A stretch of 64,000 nucleotides of DNA from a virus. Location: positions 5,422-69,421 of IMG/VR virus record IMGVR_UViG_3300034107_000490. One strand, 5' to 3'. The notes beneath the pieces were generated by a model, which saw only the letters and a list, made by a program, of their open reading frames with translations, made no database searches and was not told where the DNA came from. The stretch's first letter is position 1; each line of letters opens with the position of its first letter. Below are positions 1,196 through 26,233 of the stretch, one piece after another. The position numbers and the translations under genes are program-made.

Positions 1196-2506
1196 GATAT
1201 GAAAGATTATATTGATAAATTAAGGGAAGACTACCATAGAAAACAAATCAAAAAACTTAAGTTTGGAGATAAGTTTATGGCTAAAATAAACGATATAAGA
1301 TATGGTAAAATGTCTGCACCTGAACAAGAGGTTGATGAAAATGGAGAACCGGTTTCAAAAGGACCTGGTCCATCGCTTACAGCTTTAAAAGGACCTAATG
1401 CAACTCTAGGCAAAGATGTAAAACCTTCTTTATTTACAAACTCTCAAATGGGTTTAGGTAATCAGAATAAAGATGTAATATATAGTCCAGGTTATGAAAA
1501 GACAGGAAAGGAAATTGAAAAGAATCAAGAAGACCTTAAAAATATATTCACAAACCCTGGACAAGAGTCTACATATGATGGAAAAATAGCACCATCCTTT
1601 ATAAAAGAAGGTGAAAAAAAACAAACAAAGCCACCTGAACAACAGCCTCCTGGATTTTTCTTACCACCTAATGGAGATTTAACAACTAATCTTTATAATT
1701 TAGGTAGAGCTATTGGACAAAAAAAAGGAACTCCGGGTAGGGGTTTTGGAATAGTAGGTAATGCAGGAGCTGCAACTTTAGAGGCAACAAGATCACTACT
1801 TTCTGGAGTTGGTTTTTCAAAAGCACAAGCATACACAGATCAATTCAATCAAGAGCAAATGATTGCTGCTAGAAAGAAGTACGAAAGTAATCCTCAGTAT
1901 AGTAATGCAAATTACATAGGTGGACCAACAGAATCTAGAGATGGTGGAAAAATAAGAGTATTTGCAGAAGGAGGAGAACAAATGGATCCTCGTCAGGCTC
2001 AAATGATGCAGATGATGCAACAACAGCAAGGTCAACAAGAAGCTGATCCAAGACAACAACAAATGGATCCTCGTCAAGCACAGATGATGCAACAACAAGG
2101 TCAGCAACCAATGGATCCTCGTCAAGCGCAACAACAAGAGACTCAAATGACAGAACAAGAGTCTGCTGCATACCAACAAATAGCTGAGAAATTAGTAAAC
2201 TCTTTCGAAACTATTGAAGAGATAGCAAACTACCTTAAAGAAAATAGAGTAGACCAAGTAGCATATCAGGCAATATTAAATTTTGCACAAGATATGATCG
2301 AAGATAGAGATGAATCTAAACAAGAAAATGACGAAGCTACAGAAGAACCACAAAATGAAGAAGAAGGAGGAGGATCTGAAGAGATGCGTAAAGGTGGTAA
2401 AAAGTTCAATAAAAAAGTAGGAGAGTACATAGAATTCGAATACGATGGAAAAGTTCATAAAGGAACTATAAAAAGCATTAAGAACGGACAAATATTTTTG
2501 AAGTAA
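1196..2506 (+). CDS. Gln-rich repeat protein with acidic C-terminal region (scaffold-like?)
   Basis: ORF track starts at TTG 1190; first ATG is at 1196. The TATATTTG -7 box at 1185–1192 lies directly upstream. Contains three MDPRQAQMMQ-type tandem repeats and an acidic stretch EATEEPQNEEEGGGSEE. Its stop overlaps the next start (TAATG at 2504–2508). Confidence 0.55.
   Translation, partial: DMKDYIDKLREDYHRKQIKKLKFGDKFMAKINDIRYGKMSAPEQEVDENGEPVSKGPGPSLTALKGPNATLGKDVKPSLFTNSQMGLGNQNKDVIYSPGYEKTGKEIEKNQEDLKNIFTNPGQESTYDGKIAPSFIKEGEKKQTKPPEQQPPGFFLPPNGDLTTNLYNLGRAIGQKKGTPGRGFGIVGNAGAATLEATRSLLSGVGFSKAQAYTDQFNQEQMIAARKKYESNPQYSNANYIGGPTESRDGGKIRVFAEGGEQMDPRQAQMMQMMQQQQGQQEADPRQQQMDPRQAQMMQQQGQQPMDPRQAQQQETQMTEQESAAYQQIAEKLVNSFETIEEIANYLKENRVDQVAYQAILNFAQDMIEDRDESKQENDEATEEPQNEEEGGGSEEMRKGGKKFNKKVGEYIEFEYDGKVHKGTIKSIKNGQIFLK
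1982..2140 (+). repeat. Imperfect in-frame tandem repeat (ATGGATCCTCGTCARGC..CAAATGATGCA) x3 encoding MDPRQAQ(MM)Q
   Basis: Copies begin at 1982, 2063 and 2111. Seen directly in the sequence. Confidence 0.7.
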
Positions 2507-4701
2507 TGGCAGACAACGGATTTGACATAAATAAAATTAAAATAAAAGAGTCTGACAAAGTTAAGGCTCTTACAGGAGAGTATACATTTGGCCTACCACC
2601 TGCTTCAAAGACAGAACCAAACGCTGAAGTAGAGGATAACGAATACATTAAATATCCTGATGAAACTGTAGTACAAGCAAAAGGTGTAAGACACGAAAGA
2701 GGTGGAATTAAAGTAAACCTTCCGGATGAAACTGAAATACTCTCTGACACTCTTAAATTGACAGCAAAACAAGCCAGAGATATTAGAGATAAATACAATG
2801 TTGAAGTATCTATCCGAGATACATATTCTTCTGCGTTAGAAAAATACACAAAACGATTAGGATTAAAAAGGCTCAATGATGATCAGGAAGAAGTTTTCAA
2901 AATAATCAAAAAGCAACAAGAAAATAAAACAATAAAAAATCCTACACTTGCTCTTAACAATGAGTATTTATCAACAAAAGTGTATGACATTGAGCAAAAG
3001 AAAAAACCGCTAGAAGAGAAAAGGAAAAAACTATTTGACTTACTATTTGAGCAACAAGAATCTACTAAAAAACCTGACAGCAAGGATACCACTCAAATGA
3101 GACTAGGTGGAGAGTTCGAAAAGTTTGCAAGTAAACATGGATTCTCTGTAGAAGAAGCATCTAGAATATTAGCACGAGAAGGTAAAACGATTCCTATCTA
3201 TGAAAATGGAGCTAAGAAAAGAAGAAAAATTGTTAAACAAACTATTACAGATGATGAGTTTAATAAAGTTGATGCTAATGGTACATCTTTATCCGATAAA
3301 TGGAACGGAGATAAGATAGCATACGAAGAGTTCTTAACAGCTAAAAAAGGTATCCTAGACAATAAAGACTTAAGATCAAGCATGTATAAAAACTATCAAT
3401 CAGTAATTGAATCTGATGAGGCTTATACAGGAAAGAATAAAAAACTTAAAGAGGGTTATTCTAAACCACTTAAATCTTTAACCGAAGATCAAGTATTAGA
3501 GCAACTACTTGCACAAGAAGAAAGAAATGCTAGGTTATCTGCACATAAATTAGACGCTAAGACAACAGAGCAAAATGTTGCAAAAGGACAGACTACTAAC
3601 CAAACGACTTTAGACAAGATTAAAGCTACAAAAGGACTAGCAGACTTAGACTTTAGCAAAGGTTATCAAGGGCAAGCAGCATACATTGCTTACAACAAAA
3701 CAATGCAACAAGACCCTAAGTTTAAAGATTGGGCTAGTATTAATCAGACAGGGAAAGATGACGAAACTATCTTTGGGTTAAAAGGCACTATTTCAGGTAT
3801 TGACAACTATAATACTAATACAACATTAGGGGAAAGATTAGGGTATTTAGGTGAAGCTATTCCAGATTGTCCTTGTGGAGAAGATGCGAATGGAGAATGT
3901 TTACCTTGTAAAAAAGATGAACCTAAAAAAGAAGAAAACCCTCCAAAAGAAGGTCCTATAGAGGATAACACTGTAATACCAAGACAAAAACAAAACCAAC
4001 AGTTTTTTGTACCTGAGAGGTTTGTATTGCCTCCAAGTCCGCAATCTCCTGAAACTATGGTTCAAAATAGATTTAGTAGGCTAGATCCAATTAGAGTTGG
4101 TATTGAGGATGATTTGGCAAGTTCAGCTGCGAATAGGCAGTTTGGAGCATCACAGCTTAAAGACTTACCAGCTGCACAAAGAGTAGCCGGATTACAACAA
4201 ATGTTAGCTACTACAGGAGGTATAGAAAATAAAGCAATTCTAGATAAAAATAGGATAAACGCAGAGAATCAAGCAACAACTGACCAATATAACGCAGGAC
4301 AAAGAGATAGAGAGAACATAGCTTTAGGTAGTAACTTACTTAACTTTGAAGGAAGATCCTTGACAGGAAAAGATAAAACAGAGAATAATTTACGAAATTA
4401 CATAAACTTTAGAGAGAACGAATCGATGAATAATTTCGGTGTTCAACAAAGGTTCAATACACTGAATAAGTTATTCCCTGACTACAGTATTGATGCTTTT
4501 GGAATGGGTACAGACTTTGATCCATCAACAAACAATCAAGTACAAAATAACGATAACGTACAAGGCATAGTAAACGCAAGTAATCAAACTAGTTCGAATT
4601 ATTACCCTAATGATAACACAGAAGAAGAAGAGGAAAAAAGATTAGGTGGAAGATTTTGGAGATACGAAGAAGATGAAGACGATGATGATGATGATTATTA
4701 A
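2506..4701 (+). CDS. Hypothetical virion protein, 731 aa, poly-acidic C-terminal tail (EEEEEK...EEDEDDDDDDY)
   Basis: Long ORF translationally coupled to the upstream gene. Carries a CPCGEDANGECLPC Cys cluster and a strongly acidic tail. Confidence 0.55.
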   Translation: MADNGFDINKIKIKESDKVKALTGEYTFGLPPASKTEPNAEVEDNEYIKYPDETVVQAKGVRHERGGIKVNLPDETEILSDTLKLTAKQARDIRDKYNVEVSIRDTYSSALEKYTKRLGLKRLNDDQEEVFKIIKKQQENKTIKNPTLALNNEYLSTKVYDIEQKKKPLEEKRKKLFDLLFEQQESTKKPDSKDTTQMRLGGEFEKFASKHGFSVEEASRILAREGKTIPIYENGAKKRRKIVKQTITDDEFNKVDANGTSLSDKWNGDKIAYEEFLTAKKGILDNKDLRSSMYKNYQSVIESDEAYTGKNKKLKEGYSKPLKSLTEDQVLEQLLAQEERNARLSAHKLDAKTTEQNVAKGQTTNQTTLDKIKATKGLADLDFSKGYQGQAAYIAYNKTMQQDPKFKDWASINQTGKDDETIFGLKGTISGIDNYNTNTTLGERLGYLGEAIPDCPCGEDANGECLPCKKDEPKKEENPPKEGPIEDNTVIPRQKQNQQFFVPERFVLPPSPQSPETMVQNRFSRLDPIRVGIEDDLASSAANRQFGASQLKDLPAAQRVAGLQQMLATTGGIENKAILDKNRINAENQATTDQYNAGQRDRENIALGSNLLNFEGRSLTGKDKTENNLRNYINFRENESMNNFGVQQRFNTLNKLFPDYSIDAFGMGTDFDPSTNNQVQNNDNVQGIVNASNQTSSNYYPNDNTEEEEEKRLGGRFWRYEEDEDDDDDDY

Positions 4702-4744: not shown

Positions 4745-6190
4745 ATGAAAATGATGATGAAGAAAACGACTAAAAAGTCGAAGAAAGTAACTCCATCTAA
4801 TAAATTAAAAAAATACGAAGAAGGAGGAAAAGAAGTAACTGGATTAAAGAAAAACTCAGAATACGATTCAAAAATGCCTTCAGGCGTAACTATGCCAAAA
4901 AGAGATATGCCATATGGTACAGGTATGAAAATGCTGATGAAGACAGAACCGACCACAAACAATCTTAAGAAAATTGAGATGCCTGAAGGTTCATTGCCTG
5001 TAACTCCTTCCACACCAGTTACACCAACTAAAGGTACAAAGGTAAGTACCCCAAAAACTAAATTGTTGCCTGGTGGATTTACAAGTGAAGCACAAAAGAA
5101 AGTGTATACTCAATCTTTAAGAGATAAGGTTAAATCAGGTATGTCTGTTGACGAACTAGTTAAAAAAGGATACGGAACAAAAAAAGGACTTACAGAATTA
5201 GGTTTAGGAAAGTATTCTGAAGGAGTGGCTTTAAAGAAAAAAGGACAAGAACAAAAAGCACAAGGTATTGCACTTAAAAATAAAGCTAGTAGTACAGACT
5301 ATAAGAAGCAGTGGAATGATAACCTTTTAAGTAAATCAGTAACTAATAAAAAACTAACAGATAAAGAACAATCATACATAGTTCGCAAATATGGGCATGA
5401 AAATCTTGGAGGTTTTGCAGGGGCATCAGCGAATGATAATTTAACTCCTAAGCAAAAAAAGGCCTACGACAATGTTAGAAAAGCACAGCTTGAAAAAGCA
5501 AAACCAAAAATGCGAGAAGAGCTTGAAGGAGCTGTTCAAATGATGACACCTAGAGGTATAGCTAAACAAGTAATTAAAAAAGCTGGGCAGTTTGCATTTA
5601 CAGAAGGTGCAAAAAAATTCATTGGACAGGGTACAAAACAAACAGCATCAAAAGGTTCTCAAAAATTATTAGGAGAAGGTGTAAAAAGTGTAGCTAAAAC
5701 TGGATCAAAAGCACTTAAACCTGATAAGATAATTAAACCAGTTACTAAATCATTGAACTCTGGTCAAAAAATGCTAGGAAGAACTATTAATGTTTCAGGA
5801 CGTACAGTTTCTAGTGGAAGTCAAAAAGCATTAAACAGTGGACAAAAGTTATTAAATAACGGCCAAACAAAATTAAATGCTGGTCAAAAATTACTAGGGA
5901 AAGGGACAAAAAAAGTAGCAGCTAAAACTACAAAAGCATCATCAACTAGAGGTACAAAAGCAACTAAACAACAAATTTCTGAGTTTACTAAAAAAACAGG
6001 AAGAACTAAAAAAGAAGTTGAGGCTTTTCACGCAAGAAATAAAAAAGCTATAGACAATGACTGGGCAATTATTGATAGTTATAGAAGAGGTGGAAAAACA
6101 AAAATAGTTAAAAAATCAACAATTACACCAACTAAAAGAAAACCAACAGTTAAAGTTATAAAAATGACAAAAGGTGGTATTAAAAAGTAA
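4745..6190 (+). CDS. Lysine-rich low-complexity protein, paralog A (481 aa)
   Basis: Rich in K/T/G. Contains xGQKLL decapeptide-like repeats and a C-terminal ...MTKGGIKK. Two blocks are about 90% nt-identical to the 6217 gene. Confidence 0.6.
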   Translation: MKMMMKKTTKKSKKVTPSNKLKKYEEGGKEVTGLKKNSEYDSKMPSGVTMPKRDMPYGTGMKMLMKTEPTTNNLKKIEMPEGSLPVTPSTPVTPTKGTKVSTPKTKLLPGGFTSEAQKKVYTQSLRDKVKSGMSVDELVKKGYGTKKGLTELGLGKYSEGVALKKKGQEQKAQGIALKNKASSTDYKKQWNDNLLSKSVTNKKLTDKEQSYIVRKYGHENLGGFAGASANDNLTPKQKKAYDNVRKAQLEKAKPKMREELEGAVQMMTPRGIAKQVIKKAGQFAFTEGAKKFIGQGTKQTASKGSQKLLGEGVKSVAKTGSKALKPDKIIKPVTKSLNSGQKMLGRTINVSGRTVSSGSQKALNSGQKLLNNGQTKLNAGQKLLGKGTKKVAAKTTKASSTRGTKATKQQISEFTKKTGRTKKEVEAFHARNKKAIDNDWAIIDSYRRGGKTKIVKKSTITPTKRKPTVKVIKMTKGGIKK

Positions 6191-6216
6191 TAGTAAAGTA
6201 TTTAAATTAAAGTAAG

Positions 6217-7839
6217 ATGATTAAGTATAAAACAGTAAAAAGTAAATCTTCTACTTCTCGTAAGAAATTAAAAAAATACGAAGAAGGAGGAAAAGAAGTA
6301 ACTGGATTAAAGAAAAATTCAGAATACGATGCAAAAATGCCTGCAGGCGTAACTATGCCAAAAGGAGATATGCCATATGGTACAGGTATGAAAATGCTGA
6401 TGAAGACAGAAGCAGTTCCTGCAGACAAACTTTTGAAAAAAATTGAGATGCCTGAAGGTTCATTGCCTATAACTCCTACCGCACCAACTGCTGCTCCAAA
6501 AGCTAAACTACTTCCAGGTGGATTTACAAGTGAAGCACAGAAAGCAGCTTACATTAAAAATGTAAAAGCTAGAATGGCTAAGGGTGCTACAATAGACCAA
6601 TTGGTTAAAGACAAAGTTGGAACTAAAGCAGGATTAGAAGGACTAGGCTTTAAAGATGCAGCTAAGACTAATATTACTGTTAAAACTAAAAAATCAACTA
6701 CTTTACCTAAAAATAATGTTTTAAGCTCTGTAGGAAGAAAAGGATTAGCTAATACAGCAAGTACACCTCTACCTAAAAACTCAAAAGTTCCATTAAAGAA
6801 TGCAACTCCAAAAAAAGGAAGTAATGCAGAAGAAGCTCTTAGATTAAAAGCAGAAGGAATGAAACTTAAGGGCCAAGGAATGAAACTTAAGGGCCAAGGC
6901 ATGAAACTTAAAGGTCAAGCATTGGCAACTAAGGGTAAAAAATCATACTACAAGGAACAGTACCACCAAAACCTTATAGATAAAGCAATCAAAGGTCAAA
7001 GTATAACAGATGCTGAAAATAAAGCTTTATACGAGAAATTAAACAACAAATTAGATAGCGGTAAAAAGTTAACAGATCGCGAGGCAATGGCAAGAAAAGC
7101 TACCCTTGGTACAGCAGTTAAAAAAGGAAGAGAAGATTTTACTGGTGTTGCACTAACAGTTGGAACAATATTAGCAACTCGTGGAAGAAGTGCAGGACCT
7201 CAAGCTTTAAAAAGCCAAGCTCCAAAACTTTTATCAAAAGGAAAAAATTTAATATCTTCAGGAGCAAAACAATTAACTACAAAAGGGTCTCAAAAAGCTC
7301 TAGGAGAAGGTGTAAAAAGTGTAGCTAAAACTGGATCAAAAGCACTTAAACCTGATAAAATATTTAAACCAGCTACTAAAGCACTGAACCCTGGTCAAAA
7401 AATGCTAGGAAGAACTATTAATGTTTCCGGAAGAACTGTATCAAGCGGTAGCCAAAAAGCATTAAACAGTGGACAAAAGTTATTAAATAACGGCCAAACA
7501 AAATTAAATGCTGGTCAAAAACTTTTACAACAAGGTTCTAAAGTATCTAAATCTACAGCAGCTAAAGTTAATCAAGTAGCTAAAAACAAATCATTAGCTA
7601 GAAATACAAGAAATGCTAAATTAGAAGCAGGTATAAAAACTGATAACAAAGTAGCAAGGTCAATGAGATTAAAAGATGAAAAAGCTAACTTAGTTAAGAA
7701 AGGAATTCAAAGAGTAAAAACTTCTGTAAAAAATGCAAAAGTTAGAAATGCTAAACCGAAACCAGGTGATCAATTAAAACTTGATTTAAAAAGAGGAGGT
7801 GGTAAATTTAGTTATGGCAGAAACAGCAAAAAAAAGTAA
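6217..7839 (+). CDS. Lysine-rich low-complexity protein, paralog B (540 aa)
   Basis: Shares the N-terminal LKKYEEGGKEVTGLKKNSEYD...GTGMKMLMKTE block and the C-terminal SQKALGEGVKSVAKTGSKALKPDKI...NAGQKLL block with the 4745 gene. Has 3x GMKLKGQ heptad repeats. Confidence 0.6.
   Translation: MIKYKTVKSKSSTSRKKLKKYEEGGKEVTGLKKNSEYDAKMPAGVTMPKGDMPYGTGMKMLMKTEAVPADKLLKKIEMPEGSLPITPTAPTAAPKAKLLPGGFTSEAQKAAYIKNVKARMAKGATIDQLVKDKVGTKAGLEGLGFKDAAKTNITVKTKKSTTLPKNNVLSSVGRKGLANTASTPLPKNSKVPLKNATPKKGSNAEEALRLKAEGMKLKGQGMKLKGQGMKLKGQALATKGKKSYYKEQYHQNLIDKAIKGQSITDAENKALYEKLNNKLDSGKKLTDREAMARKATLGTAVKKGREDFTGVALTVGTILATRGRSAGPQALKSQAPKLLSKGKNLISSGAKQLTTKGSQKALGEGVKSVAKTGSKALKPDKIFKPATKALNPGQKMLGRTINVSGRTVSSGSQKALNSGQKLLNNGQTKLNAGQKLLQQGSKVSKSTAAKVNQVAKNKSLARNTRNAKLEAGIKTDNKVARSMRLKDEKANLVKKGIQRVKTSVKNAKVRNAKPKPGDQLKLDLKRGGGKFSYGRNSKKK
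6856..6918 (+). repeat. 3 x 21-nt in-frame tandem repeat encoding GMKLKGQ
   Basis: ggaatgaaacttaagggccaa repeated three times with a few substitutions. Confidence 0.8.
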
Positions 7840-8206
7840 TCCAAAACTTTGGAGCCAAGTAGTCTCTTCCGTTAAATCTGGAAGCAAGGGTGGTAATGCA
7901 GGCCAATGGTCCGCAAGAAAAGCACAAATTGCTGTAAAGAAATACAAAGAAAACGGAGGAGGTTATGAAGGCAAAAAGAGTAGTAGTAATAGTCTTAAAA
8001 AATGGACAGATGAAAAATGGCGAACTAAAAGTGGAAAGCCAAGCCTAAAAACAGGTGAAAGATATTTGCCGGAAAAAGCTATAAAATCTTTGTCTAAAAA
8101 GGATTACGAAAAAACAACTAAAGTTAAAAGAGAGGGCATGAAAGCAGGAAAGCAATTTGTACCTCAACCTAAACAAATTAAAAGTAAAACAAAAAAATTT
8201 AGATAA
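7814..8206 (+). CDS. Basic K-rich protein (about 130 aa); ORF track start GTG 7799, first ATG 7814
   Basis: Overlaps the 3' end of the 540-aa gene in the +1 frame. An A8 run (7828–7835) lies in the overlap. Confidence 0.45.
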   Translation: MAETAKKSNPKLWSQVVSSVKSGSKGGNAGQWSARKAQIAVKKYKENGGGYEGKKSSSNSLKKWTDEKWRTKSGKPSLKTGERYLPEKAIKSLSKKDYEKTTKVKREGMKAGKQFVPQPKQIKSKTKKFR

Positions 8207-8208
8207 TC

Positions 8209-9300
8209 ATGGCTGTTAAAAAACATTTAGGGTTTAAAGAAACTCAAGCAAAAATTGCTAAGAAGCAAGGTATCTCTAAAGCAGCTGCTGGAGCTATCTT
8301 AGCAAGCTCTGCTCGTAAGGCAAGCCCTTCAGCAGTAAAGAAAAACCCTGCGTTAAAAAACGTTCCTGGGGTTAAAAAGTACGTAAATGGTGGTTGGGTG
8401 CAAGAAGTAATTAAAACAGCACAGGATAGAAAGAAAAAAGAAGGAAATAAAACAATTTCATCTAGTCGTAAAGATACCGATGTTAAGATAGGTAAAGATA
8501 AATATGGTACTAGCAAAGCATTTAGAGCTACAAAGTCAGGTAAACTTGTAAGCGAAACAACACAAGATTTTCCAACTAGAGGTGGTGCTACACTTTTTGA
8601 CAAAACAACAACAGTAATGGATACTACAGGTTATTCAAAGGGTAAAAAATCATTCCCTGCAAAAAGAACTAACTACAATCCATTTGATACTGACCTATTA
8701 ACAGGTGAACAACTTGGGGTAAAAACTCAAACATTTGATGTTCCAAGAAACAAAGTTAAAAAGACCATAAAAGAAATGAAGTCAAATACAGGTATGCTTC
8801 AAAAAGAGAAAGCTGCAAAATTAAAACAGAAACCAAAAACACCTGTTTCTACTAAAACAACAGTAGACAGAAATGGAAAAAAAACTACAAAAACATTTAA
8901 GCCTGTAAGAGTAAATAAGTCTGAGGCTTTTGGAGATGGTGGTAAAAAAACTGTTAAAGGTTTATATAAGGGCGTTGAATATAATAGCAAGGGTGATGTT
9001 ATATCAAAATATGATGTAGCTTCTAAAAAAGGAGATAGAAATGTTTATCAAGCATATCCTGATGGACAATTAGTGAAGAGTACTTATAATCCTACAAAAC
9101 AAAATGCTAGAAGAGCAATGTTAGATACTACAGGATACTCTAAAGGTAAGCAATCATTTCCTAAAACTATAGAACTACAAAATACAAAAAATAATAGAAG
9201 AAACGGTAAAGTAACTACTATTAAAACAAAGGTTCCAAGAAAACTTGTAAAAACTCAGATAAAGTCTATGCAGACTATGAGAAAAGGTGGTAAAAAGTAA
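8209..9300 (+). CDS. Lysine-rich protein (363 aa) with internal duplication DTTGYSKGK(K/Q)SFP and C-terminal RKGGKK
   Basis: ATG at 8209. Composition is K/T/G/S-rich. Two copies of the DTTGYSKGKxSFP segment are visible. Confidence 0.55.
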   Translation: MAVKKHLGFKETQAKIAKKQGISKAAAGAILASSARKASPSAVKKNPALKNVPGVKKYVNGGWVQEVIKTAQDRKKKEGNKTISSSRKDTDVKIGKDKYGTSKAFRATKSGKLVSETTQDFPTRGGATLFDKTTTVMDTTGYSKGKKSFPAKRTNYNPFDTDLLTGEQLGVKTQTFDVPRNKVKKTIKEMKSNTGMLQKEKAAKLKQKPKTPVSTKTTVDRNGKKTTKTFKPVRVNKSEAFGDGGKKTVKGLYKGVEYNSKGDVISKYDVASKKGDRNVYQAYPDGQLVKSTYNPTKQNARRAMLDTTGYSKGKQSFPKTIELQNTKNNRRNGKVTTIKTKVPRKLVKTQIKSMQTMRKGGKK

Positions 9301-9323
9301 TAATAATTAAATAGATAAACAAA

Positions 9324-9755
9324 ATGGCAACAGCAAAGAAAAAAGCAGCTCCAAAAAAGAAAGCTGCTCCAGTAAAAGGAGCTTGGACTCCACCTTGGGC
9401 AAAGAAAGAAGTAAAAGAAAAAAAGACAGGAGAAATCCCTAAAGCACGTAAAGGAGGTAAAACATCTTGCTCTTCTTGTAATTGTAAAGGCAAAGGTTGT
9501 ATGATGTGTGGAGGTAAGAAATATGGGGATGGTGGACTCCAAACTCAGATGGGTAAAATACTTAAATCTCAAGGACAACAAGCAAGAAAAGCAGGTTTGA
9601 CTAAAAAGTTAGATGGAATGGGTCTTTTTGAAATGAGTGAAATGAAAGTTAAACCAGTACGAAAAGGTGCAACAGGAGCTCAACTTAAAGCAGAAGGTCT
9701 GCTATTAAAAAAGAAAGGTATGGCATTAAAAAAGAAAGGCCAAAGTATGAGATAA
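9324..9755 (+). CDS. Histone H1-like basic protein (AKKKAAPKKKAAP N-terminal repeat) with a Cys cluster CSSCNCKGKGCMMCGG
   Basis: The AKKA/PKKA repeat is typical of H1 and bacterial Hc/AlgP-like tails. Has KKKGMALKKKGQ motifs similar to GMKLKGQ in the 6217 gene. Confidence 0.55.
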   Translation: MATAKKKAAPKKKAAPVKGAWTPPWAKKEVKEKKTGEIPKARKGGKTSCSSCNCKGKGCMMCGGKKYGDGGLQTQMGKILKSQGQQARKAGLTKKLDGMGLFEMSEMKVKPVRKGATGAQLKAEGLLLKKKGMALKKKGQSMR

Positions 9756-9774
9756 GGTGGTAAAACGTGTTAAT

Positions 9775-10113
9775 ATGCCAATAAAAAAAGTAAACCCAGT
9801 AAAGAATAAACTTACTAAGTTAGGGTTGTCCGGAGTAAATAAACCTAAAAAAACTCCGGAACACCCAACTAAGAAAGGTATTGTTCTAGCCAAAGAAGGT
9901 GACAAAACAAAAGTCATTAGATTTGGAGACCAAAAGATGGGACATAACTACTCTTCTGAAGCTAGAAAATCTTTTAAAGCAAGACATGCAAAGAACATAG
10001 CAAAAGGAAAAATGTCAGCAGCTTATTGGGCGGATAAATTCTTTTGGGGCGGACCAAAAGCAGACAAAAAATCCCCACCAAAAACGCAGAAAATTAAAAA
10101 AGGATTAAAATAA
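9775..10113 (+). CDS. Small basic protein (about 112 aa); ORF track start GTG 9757, first ATG 9775
   Basis: K-rich. Last gene before the plus-strand terminator. Confidence 0.45.
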   Translation: MPIKKVNPVKNKLTKLGLSGVNKPKKTPEHPTKKGIVLAKEGDKTKVIRFGDQKMGHNYSSEARKSFKARHAKNIAKGKMSAAYWADKFFWGGPKADKKSPPKTQKIKKGLK

Positions 10114-10118
10114 TAATG

Positions 10119-10148
10119 AGCCCAAGCAACGACTTGGGTTTTTTATTT
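10119..10148 (+). terminator. Intrinsic terminator GCCCAAG-caacga-CTTGGGT + T7
   Basis: Perfect 7-bp GC-rich stem followed by a T-run, immediately after the stop at 10113. Confidence 0.8.
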
Positions 10149-10196
10149 AATAAAGTTTTGCAAAAAATAATTAATTTGATTATTTTTGAGCATATT

Positions 10197-10204
10197 ATTA
10201 CATT
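10197..10204 (+). promoter_or_regulatory. Bacteroidetes-type -7 promoter box TACATTTG upstream of the 961-aa gene
   Basis: Matches the TAnnTTTG consensus, 27 nt upstream of ATG 10231 and just after a terminator. Confidence 0.5.
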
Positions 10205-10230
10205 TGTAATTCAATTAAAAATACTATAAA

Positions 10231-13116
10231 ATGGCTAGTAGCTATAGTTTAATAAACGATTATTCAAATTTAACTCTATACACTCCTGATTATAACTTAC
10301 TTCAGACTGCATTGCAGTACAAACAAGGTAAGTTAGATCAAAATAGAGCTAAGTTACAACAGGTTAGAGATCAATTTGGAGCTTTAGACGTTGTAAAAGA
10401 TGGAGACCAACAATATTTGGATAACAGATTACAGAAGATTACCGAAATAACAAATAAATACGCAGGGTTAGACCTATCTAGCGATGCTCTTACTAACAGC
10501 TTAGTGGGTAACATGAATCAAGTAATTGATGCAAATGTTAAGACTGCTGTTGTCTCTACCAAGAGATTACGTAACGAGCAAAAAGAATGGGAGGATAAGC
10601 GTAAAAATAAACCAGATCAGTACAGTGATTTGAACTATGCATTTGCTATGCAAAAAGCAAATAAATGGGTTAATGATGGAGCTACAGGATCTTCTTACTC
10701 AGGAGGTGGTGGATTTGTTGAGTACAGAGATGTAAACAAGAAAATACAAGATGCTCTTCCAAAGGCAATCGAATTAATTAAATCTAAAAGAGCTCAAGAA
10801 GTAAGTTCAGGTCAAGCGATCGGTGGTATCGCTACTATTGAAACAGTTGATAGAGGGATGCTTTCTGAAGCAATTGACTCAATGTTAGATGAGAAAGATA
10901 AGCTACAACTTCGAATAAATGCTTGGGGACAATATGACACAATTCCTGATGAGCAATTACGAGACATGTTTGATGAAAAACAAGCTCCAAAAATAAAAGA
11001 AGCAAACTCAAATATTTCCACAATAGAGTCATTATTAAAAACTACAAAAAGCCAATCAGAAAAAGAGTCACTTACTAAAACTTTAAATGCCTGGAAAGGC
11101 AGAAAAGAAGAGCTTGATGATTTGACATTTGAAAACTATGTTGGAGAAGGTGGAGCAGGTAAGGATAACCTTTATACAAGTTTATACATAGATGATTTTA
11201 AAGGAGGATTCCTTAATGCATATAGTTATGGAGATCGTATTACTGAATTAAAAGTAAATGAAATCCAAAAAGCAAACAAAGAGTATCAACTTAAGATTGC
11301 TGAATATGGCATAAAAAAAGCTGAGTTTTCTGAAAAGCTTAGAAAAAATAGAGTTGATGAAGCATACAAAGAAGCAGAATTAAAACTTAAATATGGCCAA
11401 GGAGATGGAACCGGTGCAAACGGATGGCAACCTGCAGGAGATTCTGATAACCCTATCGATACAGAGGCATCAACAAAAGGAGGATTTGATTCTCACCAAG
11501 CTTATTTAAGAGGGCTTGATGGAACTGTAAGAAAATCATTAAAAAGTAAATTAGGCTTAGATGATGCAGGAGTTAGTAAATTGATGCGTAATAAAGATTT
11601 TGTTACTCAATTGAAGTCTGGAAGTTTAGCCGGAAAGAATGAAATTAACATTGGAGGTAAAACTGTTAAGTTAGATGCAAATCTTAAAAAACAATTACTT
11701 GACTACAAAGATGAGTTCTTGGAAACTCCTGAAGTAAAGAAAGAAGCATTTAATGACGTAGAAAGTATGATGACTACTGTAAGAAAAAATTACAGAGAAG
11801 GAATTTCATCAGGTAACGCAAGTTTTGATAATTTACCAAACTATAATATTAAGTACAAAAAAGTAAACGGAGCATACACTATAGTTAAACGTACAGGCAA
11901 TGAGGTATCTAGTGCAAATAGATACGCATACCTACTTAAGATGGAAAAATCTGGTAAATTAACCGAAACAGATAAACGAGATTTAAAACTATACTCTACA
12001 TTACACTTAATGAATGACCCTACTGTAAGTCAATCCCAATCGTCTTTACTTAAAGAGTACATACAATATACGTTGTTGGGGGATGTTGACCAAGCAGGAT
12101 ATAAAAATGTTTCGCTAAAAGTATCAAATGGATTTGGTGCTATAATACCAAACTCTGCTACAAAAAGCGGAGTAAAAGACATTTGGATATCAAATATAGC
12201 AAAAGGAGATATACAAGGTAATGCTGTTACTAATATGTTTAACTCGGTAGCTAAAACAATTATTCCAGATTTATATACAGATGAAGAACTAAAACAAACA
12301 CAAAAAGGCAGTGGATTTAGAACTTACGCAACAGATAGAGTTGGTTTAGATCGAGTTATACAAGATAATTTTTCAAATATTGATAAAAAACTAGATAAAG
12401 CATACTCTCCAAAAAGAAACCTAATTAAGATGGGTAAAGTAACCCTAAATAAAGATGCTAATGAAACTTATTACAAAAAATTAGCAGGAGCACTTACATG
12501 GGATATATCAGGAAAAGGAAGTGGAAATAATATCTTTATTGAACCAGATAAAACTGAGGATGGAAAAGTAACAGGTAACTTTGTTATATCAAGACCTTAT
12601 ACACCAACATCAAGTAAAGATACAAGAACATCTGATAGAAAAGTAGTAACACCACAAGAGTTGAGTACTTATGGTATTCCACAATTAGTAGGCCTAAATA
12701 AAGAAAAATATAATGCAAATGATGGTAAGTACGCAAGAAAATTAAGTCTTGGAAATGGTACTTACACAGAAGATGGATGGGACGCAGGATTACCAGAGGA
12801 TTACAGATCACCATTATTGCAAAACGCATCTCAAAATCCTCAAATACTTTCTGAAACAAAAAGAATATTAGCAGATTATAAACGAGGTGATCTAGAAGTA
12901 AAATTAGAACCAGTAAATTATGGTGGTAAAAACATATACGCATATAGATTGTACAGAGATGGTAAAACAGCTTTAAAAGGAATACCTTTCCCTGTGAACG
13001 ATGCTTATATGACAGATGATGGGGTAAGTAAGCTTTTAGATAATCCAAAACCTTTTGCAGATGAAGCATTTGCAAATATTCTAGAACAATATCAAACTTA
13101 CTTATACAACGATTAA
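10231..13116 (+). CDS. Large structural protein, 961 aa (function not assignable; portal/connector-size)
   Basis: First gene of a new operon. Long ORF with no recognisable catalytic motifs. Confidence 0.6.
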   Translation: MASSYSLINDYSNLTLYTPDYNLLQTALQYKQGKLDQNRAKLQQVRDQFGALDVVKDGDQQYLDNRLQKITEITNKYAGLDLSSDALTNSLVGNMNQVIDANVKTAVVSTKRLRNEQKEWEDKRKNKPDQYSDLNYAFAMQKANKWVNDGATGSSYSGGGGFVEYRDVNKKIQDALPKAIELIKSKRAQEVSSGQAIGGIATIETVDRGMLSEAIDSMLDEKDKLQLRINAWGQYDTIPDEQLRDMFDEKQAPKIKEANSNISTIESLLKTTKSQSEKESLTKTLNAWKGRKEELDDLTFENYVGEGGAGKDNLYTSLYIDDFKGGFLNAYSYGDRITELKVNEIQKANKEYQLKIAEYGIKKAEFSEKLRKNRVDEAYKEAELKLKYGQGDGTGANGWQPAGDSDNPIDTEASTKGGFDSHQAYLRGLDGTVRKSLKSKLGLDDAGVSKLMRNKDFVTQLKSGSLAGKNEINIGGKTVKLDANLKKQLLDYKDEFLETPEVKKEAFNDVESMMTTVRKNYREGISSGNASFDNLPNYNIKYKKVNGAYTIVKRTGNEVSSANRYAYLLKMEKSGKLTETDKRDLKLYSTLHLMNDPTVSQSQSSLLKEYIQYTLLGDVDQAGYKNVSLKVSNGFGAIIPNSATKSGVKDIWISNIAKGDIQGNAVTNMFNSVAKTIIPDLYTDEELKQTQKGSGFRTYATDRVGLDRVIQDNFSNIDKKLDKAYSPKRNLIKMGKVTLNKDANETYYKKLAGALTWDISGKGSGNNIFIEPDKTEDGKVTGNFVISRPYTPTSSKDTRTSDRKVVTPQELSTYGIPQLVGLNKEKYNANDGKYARKLSLGNGTYTEDGWDAGLPEDYRSPLLQNASQNPQILSETKRILADYKRGDLEVKLEPVNYGGKNIYAYRLYRDGKTALKGIPFPVNDAYMTDDGVSKLLDNPKPFADEAFANILEQYQTYLYND

Positions 13117-13127
13117 ACCAAAAAATT

Positions 13128-16100
13128 ATGGCTAAAAATACACCAAAATATAGTTTTGAAACTATTGATCAAGTACTGTCTGATATAAAACAAAAGAAAG
13201 GATTAGAAACCCCTACTACAACTTCAAGTTTAGGTTCTTCAAGAAGTGTTTTGCCACAAAAAAATGTAAGCTCTGCTTTACTTTATGGAGGTGGAGATCC
13301 TAAGAAAGCTATCAGGATAGCTGAATATAGTGTTCCGTTAGAAAGTGTATATGATCGATTAAATGATGGTTCATACGCAGCTAGGTACGAAAACTACTTA
13401 GGTGCAGAAGGTAATGAAAATAGACTTGCTTTACAACAGTCAGGTGGAGAGCAATTACTAAAAGGTTTAACAAAAAATTCAGCTAAGGCATTTAATTATG
13501 CCTTCGATAGTGTAGTAGGCACTGCTTACGGATTAACTAAGGCATTGACATCAGGATCTCTTCGTGACTTATACGATAATGAGCTTACAAATAAACTTGA
13601 TGATATGAATAAACAATTAGATTATGCTTTACCGAATTACTATTCGGACGAGCAAAAATCTATGAGTTTTTTAAGAAGCATGGGTACAGCTAATTTTTGG
13701 GCTAATGATGTTGCAGGTGGTGCTGCATTCGTTGCTGGTGCTTTACTACCACAAATTGCAATTGGTATAGCAACTGGAGGTGCTTCACTTCCAAGTTTAG
13801 CTGCAACCGCTGGAAAATTTGGAGCAAAGTTAGCATTTAAAGCAGGTAAAGAAGTAGCCGAAGAAACAGCAAAAGCAGCATTAAAAAAGGGGATAAAAAG
13901 TAGCCTTGATGATGGACTGAAAGCAATTGGAGGTATATCAGAAAAAATAGGCCAGGCAACAGGGTATACAAAAGGTAAGAATGTAATTAAATCATATCAA
14001 CAAGCAATCCTTGGAGATAAGCTAGGTACATTTACAAACACAACAGGATTCCTAGCAAGATCAGCAGGTTTTGAAGCCGGCATGGAGTCAAGACAGGCTC
14101 TAAAAGAATCTACTGACAACTACTATCAACAATTCCAAGCACAAAACGGCAGAATGCCAAACGCTGAGGAATATGGTGAATTTATGAATGATGCAGTAAA
14201 AGCATCAAATAAAGTTTTTGGCGCAAACATGGCGATTCTAAGTTTATCGAATGCTGTTATGTTTGGAAAGAAAATTTTACCTGAGTCTACATCTAACTGG
14301 GTAAACAAAACTATTGGGGGTAAAGTAAATAACCTTATAGGTTTAGGTACAAAATCAGCTGTTGTAGATGGTAAACTTACCTACACAATGTTAGGCGCAA
14401 ACAGAGGTCAAAAAATTGCAGGTAAAGCATATAAGACGTTTTCAAAACCGTTAGTAGAGGGTTTATACGAAGAAGGTTTCCAAGGTGTTGCAAGTAAGAC
14501 AATGAAAAATTACTTAGACTCTAAGTATGACAAAAATAATTTAGAAGGTTATTCTTTTTGGGGTTCTTTAAATGATAGTTTTGCAGAGCAGTACGGAACA
14601 AATGAAGGATGGAAAGAGATGACAATAGGTATGCTTATTGGCTTTGCAGGTGGAGCAATCCAACCAGGTGCTGTTAAGAATGGGTACGCTTTTTCAGGAT
14701 TTGGAAAGAATAGTTATACTTCAAGACGTTCTGAAATAGAGTCTAATCTTAAAAGAGCTAATGATGGTATTGAATTATTATCAAACCTAAATAGAACTTC
14801 CGCAGCTGTAGCTAAGGATTCCGCAATGAATAGTGGAGAAAGTTCAGACTTTGTAGGTGCAGAAGATACTTTATCTCACTACAATTTTATTCGATCTCAG
14901 GAGAGTATAAATAGCCCTACTCAAATGACTAAAGATTTCAACGTAGTTATTGACAACCTACAATTTGAAGATGAATCACTTGAAGCTTTAAGTAGTGCAG
15001 GATTGGATCCAGATACATATAAAACAAAACTAAAGGATGATTTTTCAAAATACCTTAGTATCTATAAATTTTCTAAGAAAGCAGTTGAAGCACTAGGCTT
15101 AAACCAAAAGTTAAAAGATACTCCTGGAAATATTGCAGAAATATCAGATGCTCTTATGTTCGGAATAATGGCCGGAAAGGATTCATTTGAAAATTCTAAA
15201 AATATCGCAAGTCAAATTGATGCAATTATTGGTTCAGAAGGTGTATTCAATCATTTAAACTTTTATAATAATTTAGATCAAAAACAAAAAGACCAATTCT
15301 TAGAGTTAAAAGACACTAAGGAAAATTTATCACAACTTCAAGATGCAGCAGCAAAAGTTGCACAAAAAATTGGAAAGATAAATTCAACAGGACAATTAAC
15401 TCCAGAGTTAGTAGAGGATAGAAGAAAAAGATTATCAGAACAAGCAGTTGCAATACAGGATAAAATCATAGAGACTGAAGGCAGAATTAAATATTTAGAT
15501 GATGTTTTAAAGACTGACTTTAGAAACTCAAAATATAATCTTTCTGTAGATGTAATGGATAGCATAGCATCTGTTGAAGACGTAACCGGAGCAATCGAAA
15601 ACATAAATAAAATTGATGACTTGATATCCTCTTTCAGAAAATCAGGTAAAAACAAAGAGTCAGACACATTACAATACTTAGTTAGTCAATTTAAACTTTC
15701 TTCTGATGCTCACCGAGAAATGATTAATACTCATCGAAAAATGATGGATACTAATTTCTTCTCAAGCAAAGAAGGTAAAGGATTCCTTAGTTCAATACTT
15801 GGGGATAAGTTTACAATGACTGATGATTTTAAACAATTGATTGAAGATAACAATGACATAATCGACAGATCATTAAATGCCAATGGAATAAGAAACTACA
15901 AGAATGTTCAAAAGATACTTGAAACAAGTATAGTGAATAATCCTGATTTATCTGACAGAGAAAAATTCAGACTAGAGTCTCTAATCCGTATAAACCTTTC
16001 TCAAAAAGCTTATCAAAATGCTGTAGAAGATTTACAAAAAACTTCTAAGAAAATGCAAACAGACCTATCGGACTCTGATAAAGTTTTAGCAACAACAGCA

Positions 16101-18776: not shown

Positions 18777-18778
18777 CA

Positions 18779-21700
18779 ATGAGTATAAACTGTAGAGTTT
18801 CTTTTAAAAATAATGCACTAGAGGTTGTCGATAAAAATGGACAACCTTCTGCACTTTATTATGATGCATTAGCATTAACAGGTAATGAGGATAAAGCAAT
18901 TGACCTTTGGTACAAAGCGTTCTCCCAAGAGTTTACCGAACAAGTAAGACTTAATAAAGATGACGTAACATTAGATGAGGTATTGAAATTTGTATCTGCC
19001 AACTCTTCTTTTGGAAAATCTCTTGAACCAGCAGAGATTCGTTCCATAAAAGATATCATGGATAAAAATTCATTTGAAACTTTATCTGATCTTTATAGAA
19101 CACTTGTCGACATATTTAAGCCACAAGGCATAATTGAGTTAGATACGGTAAAAGCATACCAATCTGGGTTATTTGATCTACAAGGTTTATCTGAAATCAA
19201 CCTAAATGAGATCGATGATATCCTGGATAAAGTAGAAGGAACACTAAGAGTTACAGATATTTACGTAGCACCATCTTCGGATAGTTCAGCTTCATTTATA
19301 GATACATCGAGAAAAACTATTTTAGGAACTCCTGAGTTTATTTCTCAAGAAGATATTGAACAAGAAATAGTTAACAATGTTGAAAGCACAAAAGATGAAA
19401 AAGAAATATCATCTTACATCAACAGTTTACCGTACAGTTCGTTTGCTGACAGATTTAATAAAGAAGGATCTTTTAGAACTACTATACTAAATAACATAAG
19501 TAAATACACAAAAGTAAATACTCTATTTATTGTAGATGGAAGACCTACCACAAAAAATTTAAATTATTATAAATCACTTGTAAATACAATTGGAAGTAAT
19601 AATAATACTGAAGGATTAATAGCTGACTTTGAATTTCTTTCCGGAATAGATGAGGATGTATGGTCGCAAAACCAGGATGAAATAAAAGAGGTTTTACGAG
19701 AAATTGAGCAAGATCAATTTACAGAAAATGGGATAGATATTTTTGGCCTAAGTAAATTTTCTTCAAATAAGTTTTTAGTTATTGATACGCTAAACTCTTT
19801 AGGCGAAATGCTTAACAATACTACTAATGAAACTATTCTTAATTTTTCAGAAAAGTTTATAAAAGTAGTTCCACAACCAGTTTCTACTACGTCTGAATTG
19901 TTACCTGAATCTTTGGAGCCATATGCTGAAAACATATTTAGAGTAGATTCTGCACTGAACGACTCTGAGTTATTTAGACAATTTGGGTTGTTAAAAGTAT
20001 CTGATAACATTTACCATAAAGTTGACTTAGGATCTAGATCAAACTTATATGAGGAATTATACCAACAAGCAAAAGAAACAGGATATCCAATATCTATAAA
20101 TGCTGAAGATAAAGAAGCGTCTTTAAGAGACTTAGAACAACATGTATTACTTCAAGATTCTAACGTAGAGAAAGACATTAGAGAAGAGTACAATCTTAAT
20201 AAAATAATTTTCAATCACCCAAAAATACAAGATACAAATGACTATTTACAATTGTCTGATATCACTACCGATACTGAATATTTGGTTAGAGATTTCGCTA
20301 GGGATTTTAATGATTACATTGTAACCGAAAAACAGGTTGACTCTCAGTTGTATCGAGATACCCTCTCTAAATTTAGAGTGAGCGATTCCGGAGTATCTCT
20401 AGCGGTCCCAATTAAATCGATCGAAGGACTTGAGTTTGAAAAAGAACTTACTGATTATATCCGATTAAAGAAGGATCAATCTATGAAATACTTATTGCCT
20501 TCAAGACCAACAAATCTAAAAAGCAGAGTTGACTTGCAAGCAATAAATAATCCTGCATCTGTTCTTAACTATTCAAGACAGTATGCCTTTGACAATGGGT
20601 TATTGGTTACAGAAAAAGTATCTGACAATTACGTAAACTTCTTTGGGAATACCTACGCTAAAGTAGCAGAAGACTCGACTAACTCTGTATTTAAAGTTGT
20701 GCCTAAAAACTTGGATGCTAACTACTATGTTACAAATACTGACTTCATAACTAGTGAGGATAAAGAAAATGCAACACAAGTCTTAAATGACGCTAAATTT
20801 TCTTTTACAAACCCAACCTTAAGTGAGCAAGAGTTTGAGAAATCAATCGAAGATGCAGGTATTAAAAACAAAGTTAAGTTTTCAATTTTTGGGCCAAAAG
20901 GTGCTGCAAGATTAGATGCTAAAGAAGAATCAAGCAGAAGACTAGATAACTTAAAAACTGCCATAGAAATGCTTGGCGGTAAAACATTTGACCAACTATA
21001 CCCTAAACAAAAGAAAGCTATTAAACTAGCTACAGAATGGGAGTTAGGTGTAGATAACAAATGGAAGTATGAATCTATTACTGACTCAAAAGCAACTTTA
21101 AACTTAGGTATAAATTCCATAGAAGATTTAGATAAAAAGAAAAAGCTTTCAGAAGTATTAGATTACCCTGAATTGTTTGATGCATATCCACAAATAAAAA
21201 ATCTTAAAATATCTGTATCCGAAAAAGGTGGATCAACAGGAGAAGCAACATTTTCACCAAGTAAAAATGAAATAATTATTGGAGTTTCAAAATATAAACT
21301 AGAGAACCACTTCAAAGAAAAAGAGAACTTAGATGAAATATCATACCTAAGAGAAGAGGTATTTGAGGCACTTAAGTTTATGGCAGAAAAAGCACTTCGA
21401 ATAGGGCTTTTAGAAAAAAGTGGAATGTCTTTTAGCGATGCACTAGATAAAGTAGCAGTTCAATTTACATATGAGGAACAAGATATACATTTAGGTGTAT
21501 TAAGTGAAGCAGGATTAAGAGATAATGATAAATTTTATGAGCTTTTAAATACCCTTGTGGATGGGTTAAGCGGAGATATACAAGATTCTGAATTTGATGA
21601 CTTTGATGCAAAAACATTGACATCTGTTTTACATGAGATCCAACACTGGATCCAACAAAAAGAAGGTTTTGCAAGAGGTGGAAATGCATATATAGCTTTA

Positions 21701-25786: not shown

Positions 25787-25827
25787 TACAAAAAATCCTA
25801 TTATTTTTAAAACTAATACTATAATTA

Positions 25828-25835
25828 GTATATTT
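25828..25835 (+). promoter_or_regulatory. -7 promoter box TATATTTG 5 nt upstream of ATG 25841 (leaderless-type)
   Basis: TAnnTTTG consensus. Same arrangement as at 1185–1192. Confidence 0.45.
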
Positions 25836-25840
25836 GTCCT

Positions 25841-26233
25841 ATGGTAACTTTTAAAGCACATAGTAGAGGTGGTTTTGATTATTCGTTTAATAATTTAGAA
25901 ACGCTTGCCTCTGTAAAGATGGTATGGAATGTAATAACTAGGCCAATCTTTAAAGAAAGGTCTAGAGCATTCATAGGTCTAAAAGAATTCATGGATGATG
26001 GAGACGTTATTCAAGCAGGTATTTATGACAAGTTATACCGAATTGTCAAATTTGAGAAGATGGATCCAAAGGGTGGAAACATTTACCAAATTCATCGAGT
26101 TGACAATGCAAGTATAACTGAGTTCGATATTGATGCTACTAAAAAAGGACAAAAAGTAAAAATAAAAAACCGAAAGTCATACGAACAAATGTTTAATGAC
26201 TTCTTAATTTTTGACAAAAAAGATGGCGAATAA
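25841..26233 (+). CDS. Hypothetical protein, 130 aa
   Basis: Own promoter box. Sits between the giant ORFs. Confidence 0.5.
   Translation: MVTFKAHSRGGFDYSFNNLETLASVKMVWNVITRPIFKERSRAFIGLKEFMDDGDVIQAGIYDKLYRIVKFEKMDPKGGNIYQIHRVDNASITEFDIDATKKGQKVKIKNRKSYEQMFNDFLIFDKKDGE

Follow-up and report, generated by a model that had tools for sequence, protein, structure and literature searches.

Six lysine-rich proteins encoded at a variable slot in the late operon of an uncultured marine crass-like phage: candidate accessory cargo proteins

The internal proteins of phage T4 vary between T-even phages. They are basic and dispensable, and are injected after being packaged along with the DNA; a shared capsid-targeting sequence (CTS) of ~10 amino-acid residues (aa) loads them and is then removed (PMC7697877). 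Proteins that are packaged with the DNA, delivered to the host and encoded in a late structural module are also found in phages P22 (gp7/16/20) and T7 (gp14-16) and, as inner-body proteins, in SPN3US and phiKZ. In phage crAss001, the block located between the muzzle gene and those of the giants codes for gp45 and gp46 (C1/C2), cargo proteins that were detected in the virions by mass spectrometry and cryo-electron microscopy and partly resolved inside the capsid and the tail, and for which ejection in a partly unfolded state was proposed; the space for cargo comprises ~5.1 MDa in the capsid and 0.4 MDa in the tail (PMC10172136). Here we describe six tightly packed, co-oriented open reading frames (ORFs), P1-P6, on the plus strand at positions 4745-10113 of a 64,000-nucleotide (nt) stretch of viral DNA (the window; IMG/VR record IMGVR_UViG_3300034107_000490, positions 5,422 to 69,421). 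With somewhat less than even confidence, we regard the products of this cassette as accessory cargo proteins, internal or ejected, of a late tail and cargo operon, because of the position and operon membership of the genes, a motif common to the proteins, their disorder, and, in a related locus, a tail lysozyme that carries a fused P6-like domain.

The features of the region are listed in Table 1. The lysine contents of P1-P6 are 18.9-24.6%, the isoelectric points (pI) are 10.33-10.61, and the net charges total +301. These values bear out a first-pass annotation, made from the DNA letters alone, in which six consecutive, co-oriented and extremely basic genes had been noticed. In the remaining 48 ORFs of the window (at least 100 aa), the lysine content is 9.4 +/- 2.6% (maximum 16.7%), and a pI above 10 is found in 0/48. 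For P3 and P6, the starts at ATG 7814 and ATG 9775 are favoured by the orthologues. As the coding strand of the cassette region contains 44.7% A and a premature TAA is present in P5, it might be argued that the ORFs are spurious or decaying products of A-rich DNA. However, the reading frames of the orthologues are intact in seven related contig lineages, and the ratios of nonsynonymous to synonymous substitution rates (dN/dS) are below 1: 0.03-0.07 for P6, 0.17 for P3, 0.18-0.32 for P5 and 0.40-0.47 for P1/P2, with 0.12-0.26 for the flanking genes. The genes are therefore real coding sequences under purifying selection. With the motifs and domains conserved as well, an origin as spurious ORFs is hardly credible and is effectively refuted.

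Table 1. Positions of the cassette genes and neighbouring features in the window
Feature	Position	Strand	Description
731-aa virion-protein family	2506-4701	+	Poly-acidic tail; phrog_36695 'virion structural protein', E 1.8e-46
P1	4745-6190	+	481 aa, K 20%, net charge +74
P2	6217-7839	+	540 aa, K 18.9%, net charge +85
P3	7814-8206	+	130 aa from ATG (135 aa from GTG 7799), net charge +26
P4	8209-9300	+	363 aa, net charge +60
P5	9324-9755	+	143 aa, net charge +30; in-frame remnant 9756-9773
P6	9775-10113	+	112 aa from ATG (118 aa from GTG 9757), net charge +26
Intrinsic terminator	10118-10147	+	Stem CCCAAG/CTTGGG (hairpin 10118-10141), then T-run; 5 nt past last stop
Intergenic element, nearly invariant	10148-10230	+	TTTG-N20-TAcaTTTG at 10175-10206; upstream of 961-aa and giant-protein genes
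961-aa virion-protein family	10231-13116	+	phrog_32131 'virion structural protein'; bounds cassette slot downstream
1882-aa giant protein	13128-18776		
1939-aa giant protein	26211-32030		

The cassette starts after a gap of 43 nt from the gene of the 731-aa protein, on the same strand and in the same operon. Both flanking proteins match PHROG families labelled as virion structural proteins, and their homologues in the Cellulophaga phage phi17:2 are annotated virion proteins, which confirms the location in a virion module noticed at first. Seven further lineages (L003, L004/5, L006/7, L008, L009, L010 and L011) were collected via exact-protein look-ups of P2 relatives. Their gene order is muzzle, a variable or tail-lysozyme gene, a gene of ~360-480 aa, a gene of ~660-740 aa, the cassette, a gene of ~950-1000 aa, and the giants (1,640-2,150 aa). 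The slot is occupied in all seven lineages by 2-7 basic genes, nearly all with a lysine content above 17% and a pI above 10. When the net charges of a locus are added up, the totals lie between +94 and +301 (window, +301; relatives, +94 to +260). In phi17:2 and in the gut phage csAssE-Sib, the two flanking genes are adjacent without a cassette; phi4:1 also has none. The cassette is therefore an accessory insertion at one fixed place. The large basic proteins outpace their flanks in evolution (dN/dS 0.4-0.47), and genes are gained and lost between lineages, which is comparable to the T4 internal proteins.

According to the comparison of the eight loci, a GC-rich hairpin and a T-run follow the last cassette gene in 8/8 cases, with five different stems (for example, CCCAAG/CTTGGG vs CCCTCC/GGAGGG). 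As the stems differ yet pair by compensatory changes, the terminator that had been proposed to close the operon is real. A 37-aa ORF lying over the terminator in L004 and L008 is not a gene, since L003 and L009 retain the hairpin but no longer have the ATG. The ~90 nt past the terminator are almost invariant in five loci, exceeding the conservation of the neighbouring genes. They contain the pattern TTTG-N20-TAcaTTTG, which we take to be the Bacteroidetes-type promoter consensus. This pattern occurs 4 times in the window vs 2.2 expected by chance, so that the conservation argues for a promoter more strongly than the pattern. The terminator and the promoter element indicate that the cassette ends one late transcription unit and that the 961-aa and giant-protein genes begin another.

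The array DNA has no match in a near-identity search of 50,697 phage records. When the six proteins were joined and searched by tblastn against the same records, relatives were obtained for P3 and P6 only, and P1, P2, P4 and P5 were unmatched. No match was obtained in IMG/VR pattern scans using P4 and P2, or in Pfam, PHROGs and NCBIfam scans of P1, P2, P4 and P5. At a threshold of E<=0.1, none of the six proteins has a Pfam match, the linker histone H1/H5 family (PF00538) included, and Pfam and NCBIfam scans of the six proteins for HU/IHF (PF00216) and Hc1 were negative. Known structural, histone and HU families match none of the six, in agreement with the first impression that no standard structural family is alike. 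Nothing real was obtained when P6, P3 and the profiles of the P1/P2 family and of a 52-aa core were compared with the PDB sequences; a 'hit' to protein A was rejected, as a 14-residue helix had been summed across tandem repeats, with E>60 for each stretch. As far as sequence similarity can tell, the cassette lies outside the families of histone H1, Hc1, HU/IHF, T4 internal proteins, adenovirus core proteins and crAss001 C1/C2. A transmembrane segment is present in 0/6 proteins (maximum 19-residue hydropathy 0.78), and membrane insertion by the cassette proteins was rejected. Two kinds of proteins are distinguished: P1, P2, P4 and P5 are lineage-restricted, largely disordered mosaics, and P3 and P6 are small conserved domains. 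The description of all six as low-complexity proteins was therefore too broad, because P6 is confidently folded and P3 matches widespread PHROG families.

P1 is composed of an N-terminal basic leader up to KKYEEGG, then a conserved core of 52 aa with three helices, followed by GQKLL repeats and the C-terminus MTKGGIKK. P1 and P2 are paralogues with nucleotide stretches that are 87-97% identical. The segments 4798-4948 and 6261-6411 are 97% identical over 151 nt, the segments 5634-5911 and 7265-7542 are 87% identical over 278 nt, and the remainder of both genes is diverged. These shared segments suggest that one gene was recently duplicated from the other, or that gene conversion has occurred between them. 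In P2, the three GMKLKGQ heptads correspond to a 21-nt repeat of 3.1 copies at 6854-6919. In the AlphaFold2 model of P2, the mean predicted local distance difference test score (pLDDT) is 55.9, and 295/540 residues are below 50. The confident parts are helical, namely the three-helix core (~100-148) and the stretches ~240-300 and ~450-510; no structural neighbour of P2 was found in the PDB. The disorder expected for the whole set thus applies to P2, which is mostly disordered, but not to P6, which is predicted to be folded (pLDDT 79.5). P2 has 21 relatives among 5.8 billion proteins, and a search of 1.84 billion proteins with the profile of the P1/P2 core gave only 23 representative clusters (E<1e-10). 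Large proteins with distant matches to the core were set aside, as Pfam and PHROGs gave only a marginal NlpC/P60 match, a marginal SET match and a weak minor-tail-protein match for them.

P4 consists of an N-terminal HLGFK...AGAILASSARKAS module, two DTTGYSKGK modules and the C-terminal MRKGGKK; it has 40 relatives among 5.8 billion proteins. The GQKLL-type repeats, the GMKLKGQ heptads and the duplicated DTTGYSKGKxSFP segment of the first-pass annotation are all present in the cassette. P5 consists of the N-terminal AKKKAAPKKKAAP, a Cys knuckle, KKYGDGG and a lysine-rich helical tail. The Cys cluster that had been noticed takes the form C-x-C-x4-C-x2-C, which is present in 4/8 related proteins. 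The N-terminus of P5 had been likened to histone H1. Its A/K/P repeats of the AKKKAAPKKK type are indeed similar to those of H1, Hc1/Hc2 and AlgP, and AKKKAAPKKKAAP is kept in the orthologues. However, it amounts to about two copies (two AKKKAAP units), and no winged-helix, linker-histone, Hc1 or HU domain was detected in Pfam, PHROGs and NCBIfam. The stop codon of P5 (TAA 9753-9755) stands where the MR[KN]GGK motif of the orthologues has a K or N codon. Positions 9741-9775 read QSMR-TAA-GGKTC-TAA, and the relatives read QSMRKGGKVC-stop or QSMRNGGKTS-stop; the remnant GGKTC-stop is in frame at 9756-9773. Compared with these relatives, one base substitution (or an error in the sequence) has turned the codon into a stop, so that the terminal motif is lost. 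The alternative start of P6, GTG 9757, sits inside this remnant stretch of P5 in a different reading frame.

The modules of these proteins are shuffled between the lineages. The HLGFK module found at the N-terminus of P4 is a separate ORF of 54 or 75 aa in L006 and L009, and it follows the DTTGYSKGK module in L004. The tail of P5 is fused onto a 413-aa protein in L004, and in L010 a P5-type N-terminus, with its Met retained, occurs at an internal position. A short motif with the consensus K-K-[YFML]-x-x-G-G-K recurs in the proteins, with 75 copies in 34 cassette proteins (8.6 per 1000 aa). In P1-P6 of the window, [MLIFY]xxGG is observed 13 times vs 3.1 times expected from shuffling (7.3 per 1000 aa); the frequency in the replication-module proteins is 0.46 per 1000 aa. 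The motif lies within the last 14 residues in 16/34 cassette proteins (MRKGGKK, often followed by Cys) vs 0/38 neighbours. The N-terminal leader of the P1/P2 family also closes with the motif (KKYEEGG), with near-invariant K20, G24 and G25, and module boundaries coincide with it. For example, ...FKNGG/KKLHLGFK at a boundary in L004 matches the N-terminus of the window P4.

The motif is also found in the 731-aa family, at aligned positions ~198-202 and ~231, including phi17:2 gp041 and the csAssE-Sib protein. The window protein has QMRLGG at 198-203 and KRLGGRFW just before its acidic tail. In phi17:2 gp041, six copies are observed vs 1.6 expected, and the C-terminus is KLKWGGKKR. The motif common to the basic proteins and this virion family is the main internal evidence that links the cassette products to an annotated virion component. 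The 731-aa protein shares 33% identity with phi17:2 gp041 and phi4:1 gp40 (Lightbulbvirus), both annotated as structural, and ~35% with a protein of csAssE-Sib. G-x-x-H-E-x-G-G-[IVT]-x-[VIL]-[ND]-L (H63, E64, G66, G67) is invariant in the family from marine through gut crass-like phages. The poly-acidic tail noticed on this upstream protein ends in ...EEDEDDDDDDY; such a poly-Asp/Glu tail occurs in 5/8 marine lineages only.

This acidic tail, and a 2339-aa protein with a net charge of -153, raise another explanation. As the cassette is co-transcribed with late genes, its products could stay in the cytoplasm as unpackaged late proteins, either as chaperones or scaffold-like partners of the acidic giants or as nucleoid- or RNA-binding factors for host takeover. 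We consider this unlikely. The cargo of phi17:2, crAss001 and csAssE-Sib, which are without the cassette, is equally acidic (-2.0 to -3.0 per 100 aa), and the motif in common with a virion protein suggests a common fate. On the former ground, the cassette as a counter-charge for unusually acidic cargo was rejected.

P3 and P6 match widespread families. P3 matches phrog_14910 (E 1.5e-30) and phrog_17747 (E 2.2e-14), and its homologues are found in Pelagibacter, Roseobacter, Puniceispirillum and Synechococcus phages. Its N-terminal half may be DUF5872-like (PF19197); the window copy has no Pfam match, and the L009 orthologue (82% identical) gives a faint DUF5872 match. P6 belongs to phrog_7595 (E 4.5e-29) and is a distant relative of DUF5754; a further match covers a portion of phrog_220 ('minor head protein and DNA pilot'). 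Its family (~108-112 aa) has at least 7,999 relatives (7,999/8,000 scored candidates passed), of which the 120 best listed are 70-90% identical, and His30, His57, His71, Asp52, Arg49, Arg64 and Arg70 are invariant. The predicted fold consists of a helix, a beta-hairpin and helices, with a predicted template modelling score of 0.70. No fold neighbour is known for this family, which is among the most abundant small proteins of marine viral metagenomes. In the predicted viral structures of BFVD, the P6 domain is found (best E 5.7e-13) fused to XkdF-like and ChaB-like proteins, a 1393-aa protein and ICP1 ORF125. The window P6 has no match in the Pfam scan; it is 29% identical (E 1e-4) to aa 426-517, at the C-terminal end of the lysozyme protein of L010, which has a match to PF19058 (DUF5754). 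In L010, the tail lysozyme (PF18013) and the DUF5754 match lie within one protein (5165-6793). In L011 (4807-6688), the tail lysozyme is followed by a separate 91-aa DUF5754 ORF. The comparison of the two loci points to a gene fusion or fission that involves a P6-like domain.

In other phages, the relatives of P3 and P6 are located near lysis genes. In Roseobacter phage CRP-13 and Synechococcus phage S-CRES1, the two lie with each other beside the endolysin, where the late operon has its distal end. The genes of internal virion protein D and the endolysin come before the P6 relative in Lentibacter phage ICBM2, with a terminator after it, and in phage HMO-2011 the P3/P6 homologues adjoin endolysin genes. 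More generally, the P6 family is found near the endolysin at the late-operon end in unrelated podophages of roseobacters, SAR11, SAR116 and cyanobacteria, often adjoining a P3-like gene. The cationic tails of some endolysins and the 'disruptin' peptides are precedents for polycations that destabilise the envelope. Thus the cassette proteins might help to breach the envelope, at entry or at lysis, by destabilising the outer membrane and lipopolysaccharide together with the tail lysozyme or the endolysin. The P3/P6 homologues beside the endolysins of the four phages fit this explanation, as does the tail lysozyme encoded just upstream in the related loci, in one of which it is fused to the P6/DUF5754-like domain. 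However, none of the six proteins has a hydrophobic or transmembrane segment, the proteins of 360-540 aa far exceed known membrane-active lysis peptides, and P6 has a compact conserved fold with invariant His, Asp and Arg rather than being an amphipathic peptide. A role as envelope-breaching or lysis helpers is accordingly judged quite unlikely.

The first-pass annotation had proposed that the proteins act like protamines, histones or adenovirus pVII, that is, as high-copy core proteins that condense or neutralise the packaged genome. The extreme positive charge of the six proteins, the AKKKAAPKKK N-terminus and conserved Cys knuckle of P5, the location in the virion module, and the resemblance of the Gly-Gly motif to the adenain sites of adenovirus core-protein precursors are consistent with this idea. 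The amount of charge is not. One copy of each protein gives +301 and ~196 kDa, and a genome of ~128 kb (estimated from related contigs) has ~256,000 phosphates. At twelve copies each (2.3 MDa), the proteins would neutralise 1.4% of the DNA charge. Neutralisation of 30% needs ~255 copies of each, or ~50 MDa, ten times the cargo space of crAss001, and this space of ~5.5 MDa also has to hold giant proteins (PMC10172136). Since the cassettes of the relatives carry +94 to +260 per set and cultured relatives have none, condensation by these proteins is not essential for DNA packing. The domain scans for histone, HU and Hc1 were also negative. We conclude that global DNA condensation at cargo-like copy numbers is quantitatively implausible; as an explanation of the cassette, condensation or neutralisation of the genome is improbable.

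The likeness to adenovirus can be read in another way. Adenain processes pVII and pre-Mu at (M/L/I)XGG↓X. Like these precursors, the cassette proteins are very basic and have, ~25 residues into the chain and between short basic segments, a Gly-Gly with a hydrophobic residue ahead of it. They might be polyprotein-like precursors that are cut at K-K-[YFML]-x-x-G-G↓K by a phage or host protease, and the basic peptides would then travel with the DNA; such peptides may include the 19-residue Cys knuckle and the H1-like tails. The hydrophobic residue, however, lies three positions before Gly-Gly, one further than in the adenain site, and the adenovirus core proteins are arginine-rich whereas the cassette proteins are lysine-rich, with implausible copy numbers needed for condensation. 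No protease family was found in Pfam scans of the 14 plus-strand ORFs (60-32030) and of 10/40 minus-strand ORFs. We regard processing of this kind as a long shot. If true, it would be the tailed-phage counterpart of adenovirus pVII/Mu, and a Gly-Gly maturation so far undescribed in Crassvirales.

If the six proteins are accessory cargo, as we favour, they would be loaded in the capsid and/or the tail cargo space along with the neighbouring conserved virion proteins and expelled to the host before or with the DNA. Unfolded and cationic, they could thread a narrow DNA-conducting channel and bind polyanions such as DNA or RNA inside the host. The proteins are physically suited to ejection, because P2 is mostly disordered and a transmembrane segment is absent from all six. 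K-K-[YFML]-x-x-G-G-K would most likely be a common loading or processing handle, comparable to the T4 CTS. The packaging, the ejection, the binding to nucleic acids and this role of the motif are what we infer; after delivery, the proteins may bind DNA or RNA, protect the incoming DNA or act on the cell envelope.

The closest functional analogue is probably the set of T4 internal proteins. IPI, IPII and IPIII are also basic, of small to medium size, dispensable, and encoded next to head and virion genes, and the cassette shares with them a variable gene set and short terminal motifs. However, no sequence similarity is detected, including to the CTS, and the cassette proteins reach 540 aa, with disorder prevailing. 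The cassette motif is located at both ends and internally, with no cleavage or protease known, unlike the CTS. The ~1,370 internal-protein subunits of T4 (~18 MDa) are also far above the likely cargo space of a crass-type phage. The genes of crAss001 gp45 and gp46 occupy the same block as the cassette, after the muzzle gene and before the giant virion proteins, but the two proteins contain 7.1% and 6.7% lysine and are not lysine-rich, and the motif in gp45 (4 observed vs 2.9 expected) is not above chance. The ejected proteins of P22 and T7 and the inner-body proteins of SPN3US and phiKZ are folded or membrane-inserting rather than polycationic disordered mosaics, and show no homology to the cassette.

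Several results weigh against the assignment as cargo. P1, P2, P4 and P5 occur in no cultured phage (tblastn, 50,697 phage records). As phi17:2, phi4:1 and csAssE-Sib are without it, the cassette is dispensable in this virion type. The profiles of the 731-aa and 961-aa families gave hhalign probabilities of 0.2% and 0.1% against crAss001 gp45 and gp46. The equivalence of the 'cargo block' is therefore positional only, because no homology to gp45/gp46, in the flanking families either, is detectable. A late non-virion role fits equally well with the endolysin genes that adjoin the P3/P6 homologues elsewhere. The crAss001 structure paper is silent on a processing protease or cleavage (PMC10172136). 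A literature search for lysine-rich or histone-like proteins of Crassvirales gave nothing relevant, and no description of such proteins was found.

The rest of the window is consistent with a crass-like phage. The minus strand at 32059-60168 carries a convergent replication module, which encodes an SNF2/DEAD helicase, a primase-polymerase, PolA, a DnaB-like helicase, an SPFH/Band 7 protein and both ribonucleotide reductase subunits. The family A DNA polymerase is apparently split into an exonuclease-like protein and a polymerase protein. No transfer RNA genes are present in the window. In related metagenomic contigs of 68-128 kb, the crAss_MUZ muzzle protein is encoded just upstream. Because of the flanking homologies, the replication module and crAss_MUZ in the related contigs, the source is, judging from gene content, an uncultured marine crass-like phage distantly related to the Cellulophaga phages phi17:2 and phi4:1.

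The 1939-aa giant protein likewise belongs to a PHROG family labelled 'virion structural protein', and the 2339-aa protein gives a weak match to LPD23 (polyvalent-protein domain). One strongly hydrophobic stretch each is found in the 1882-aa protein (aa 197-215) and the 1939-aa protein (aa 1802-1820), with a 19-residue hydropathy of 1.7-1.8. These may be membrane-inserting segments, as expected of ejection proteins. The giant proteins of such phages are usually assumed to be RNA polymerase subunits. For the giants at 13128-32030, a virion RNA polymerase was not confirmed: PDB sequence searches gave no matches, the solved crass-like virion RNA polymerase structures included, and a convincing DxDxD motif was not seen.

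The protein cargo delivered by crass-like phages is unusually large, and studies of it have covered only the conserved proteins of one gut phage. The cassette would add a second, fast-evolving cargo layer in the marine relatives, which is polycationic, disordered, modular and Gly-Gly-tagged. Even if its proteins are not packaged, the cassette is a clear case of module shuffling among disordered phage proteins. If they are packaged, the motif becomes a candidate loading or processing signal of crassvirus cargo that is directly testable, the variable content would be a place to seek injected anti-defence or DNA-protecting factors, and the abundant P6 family would gain its first functional context.

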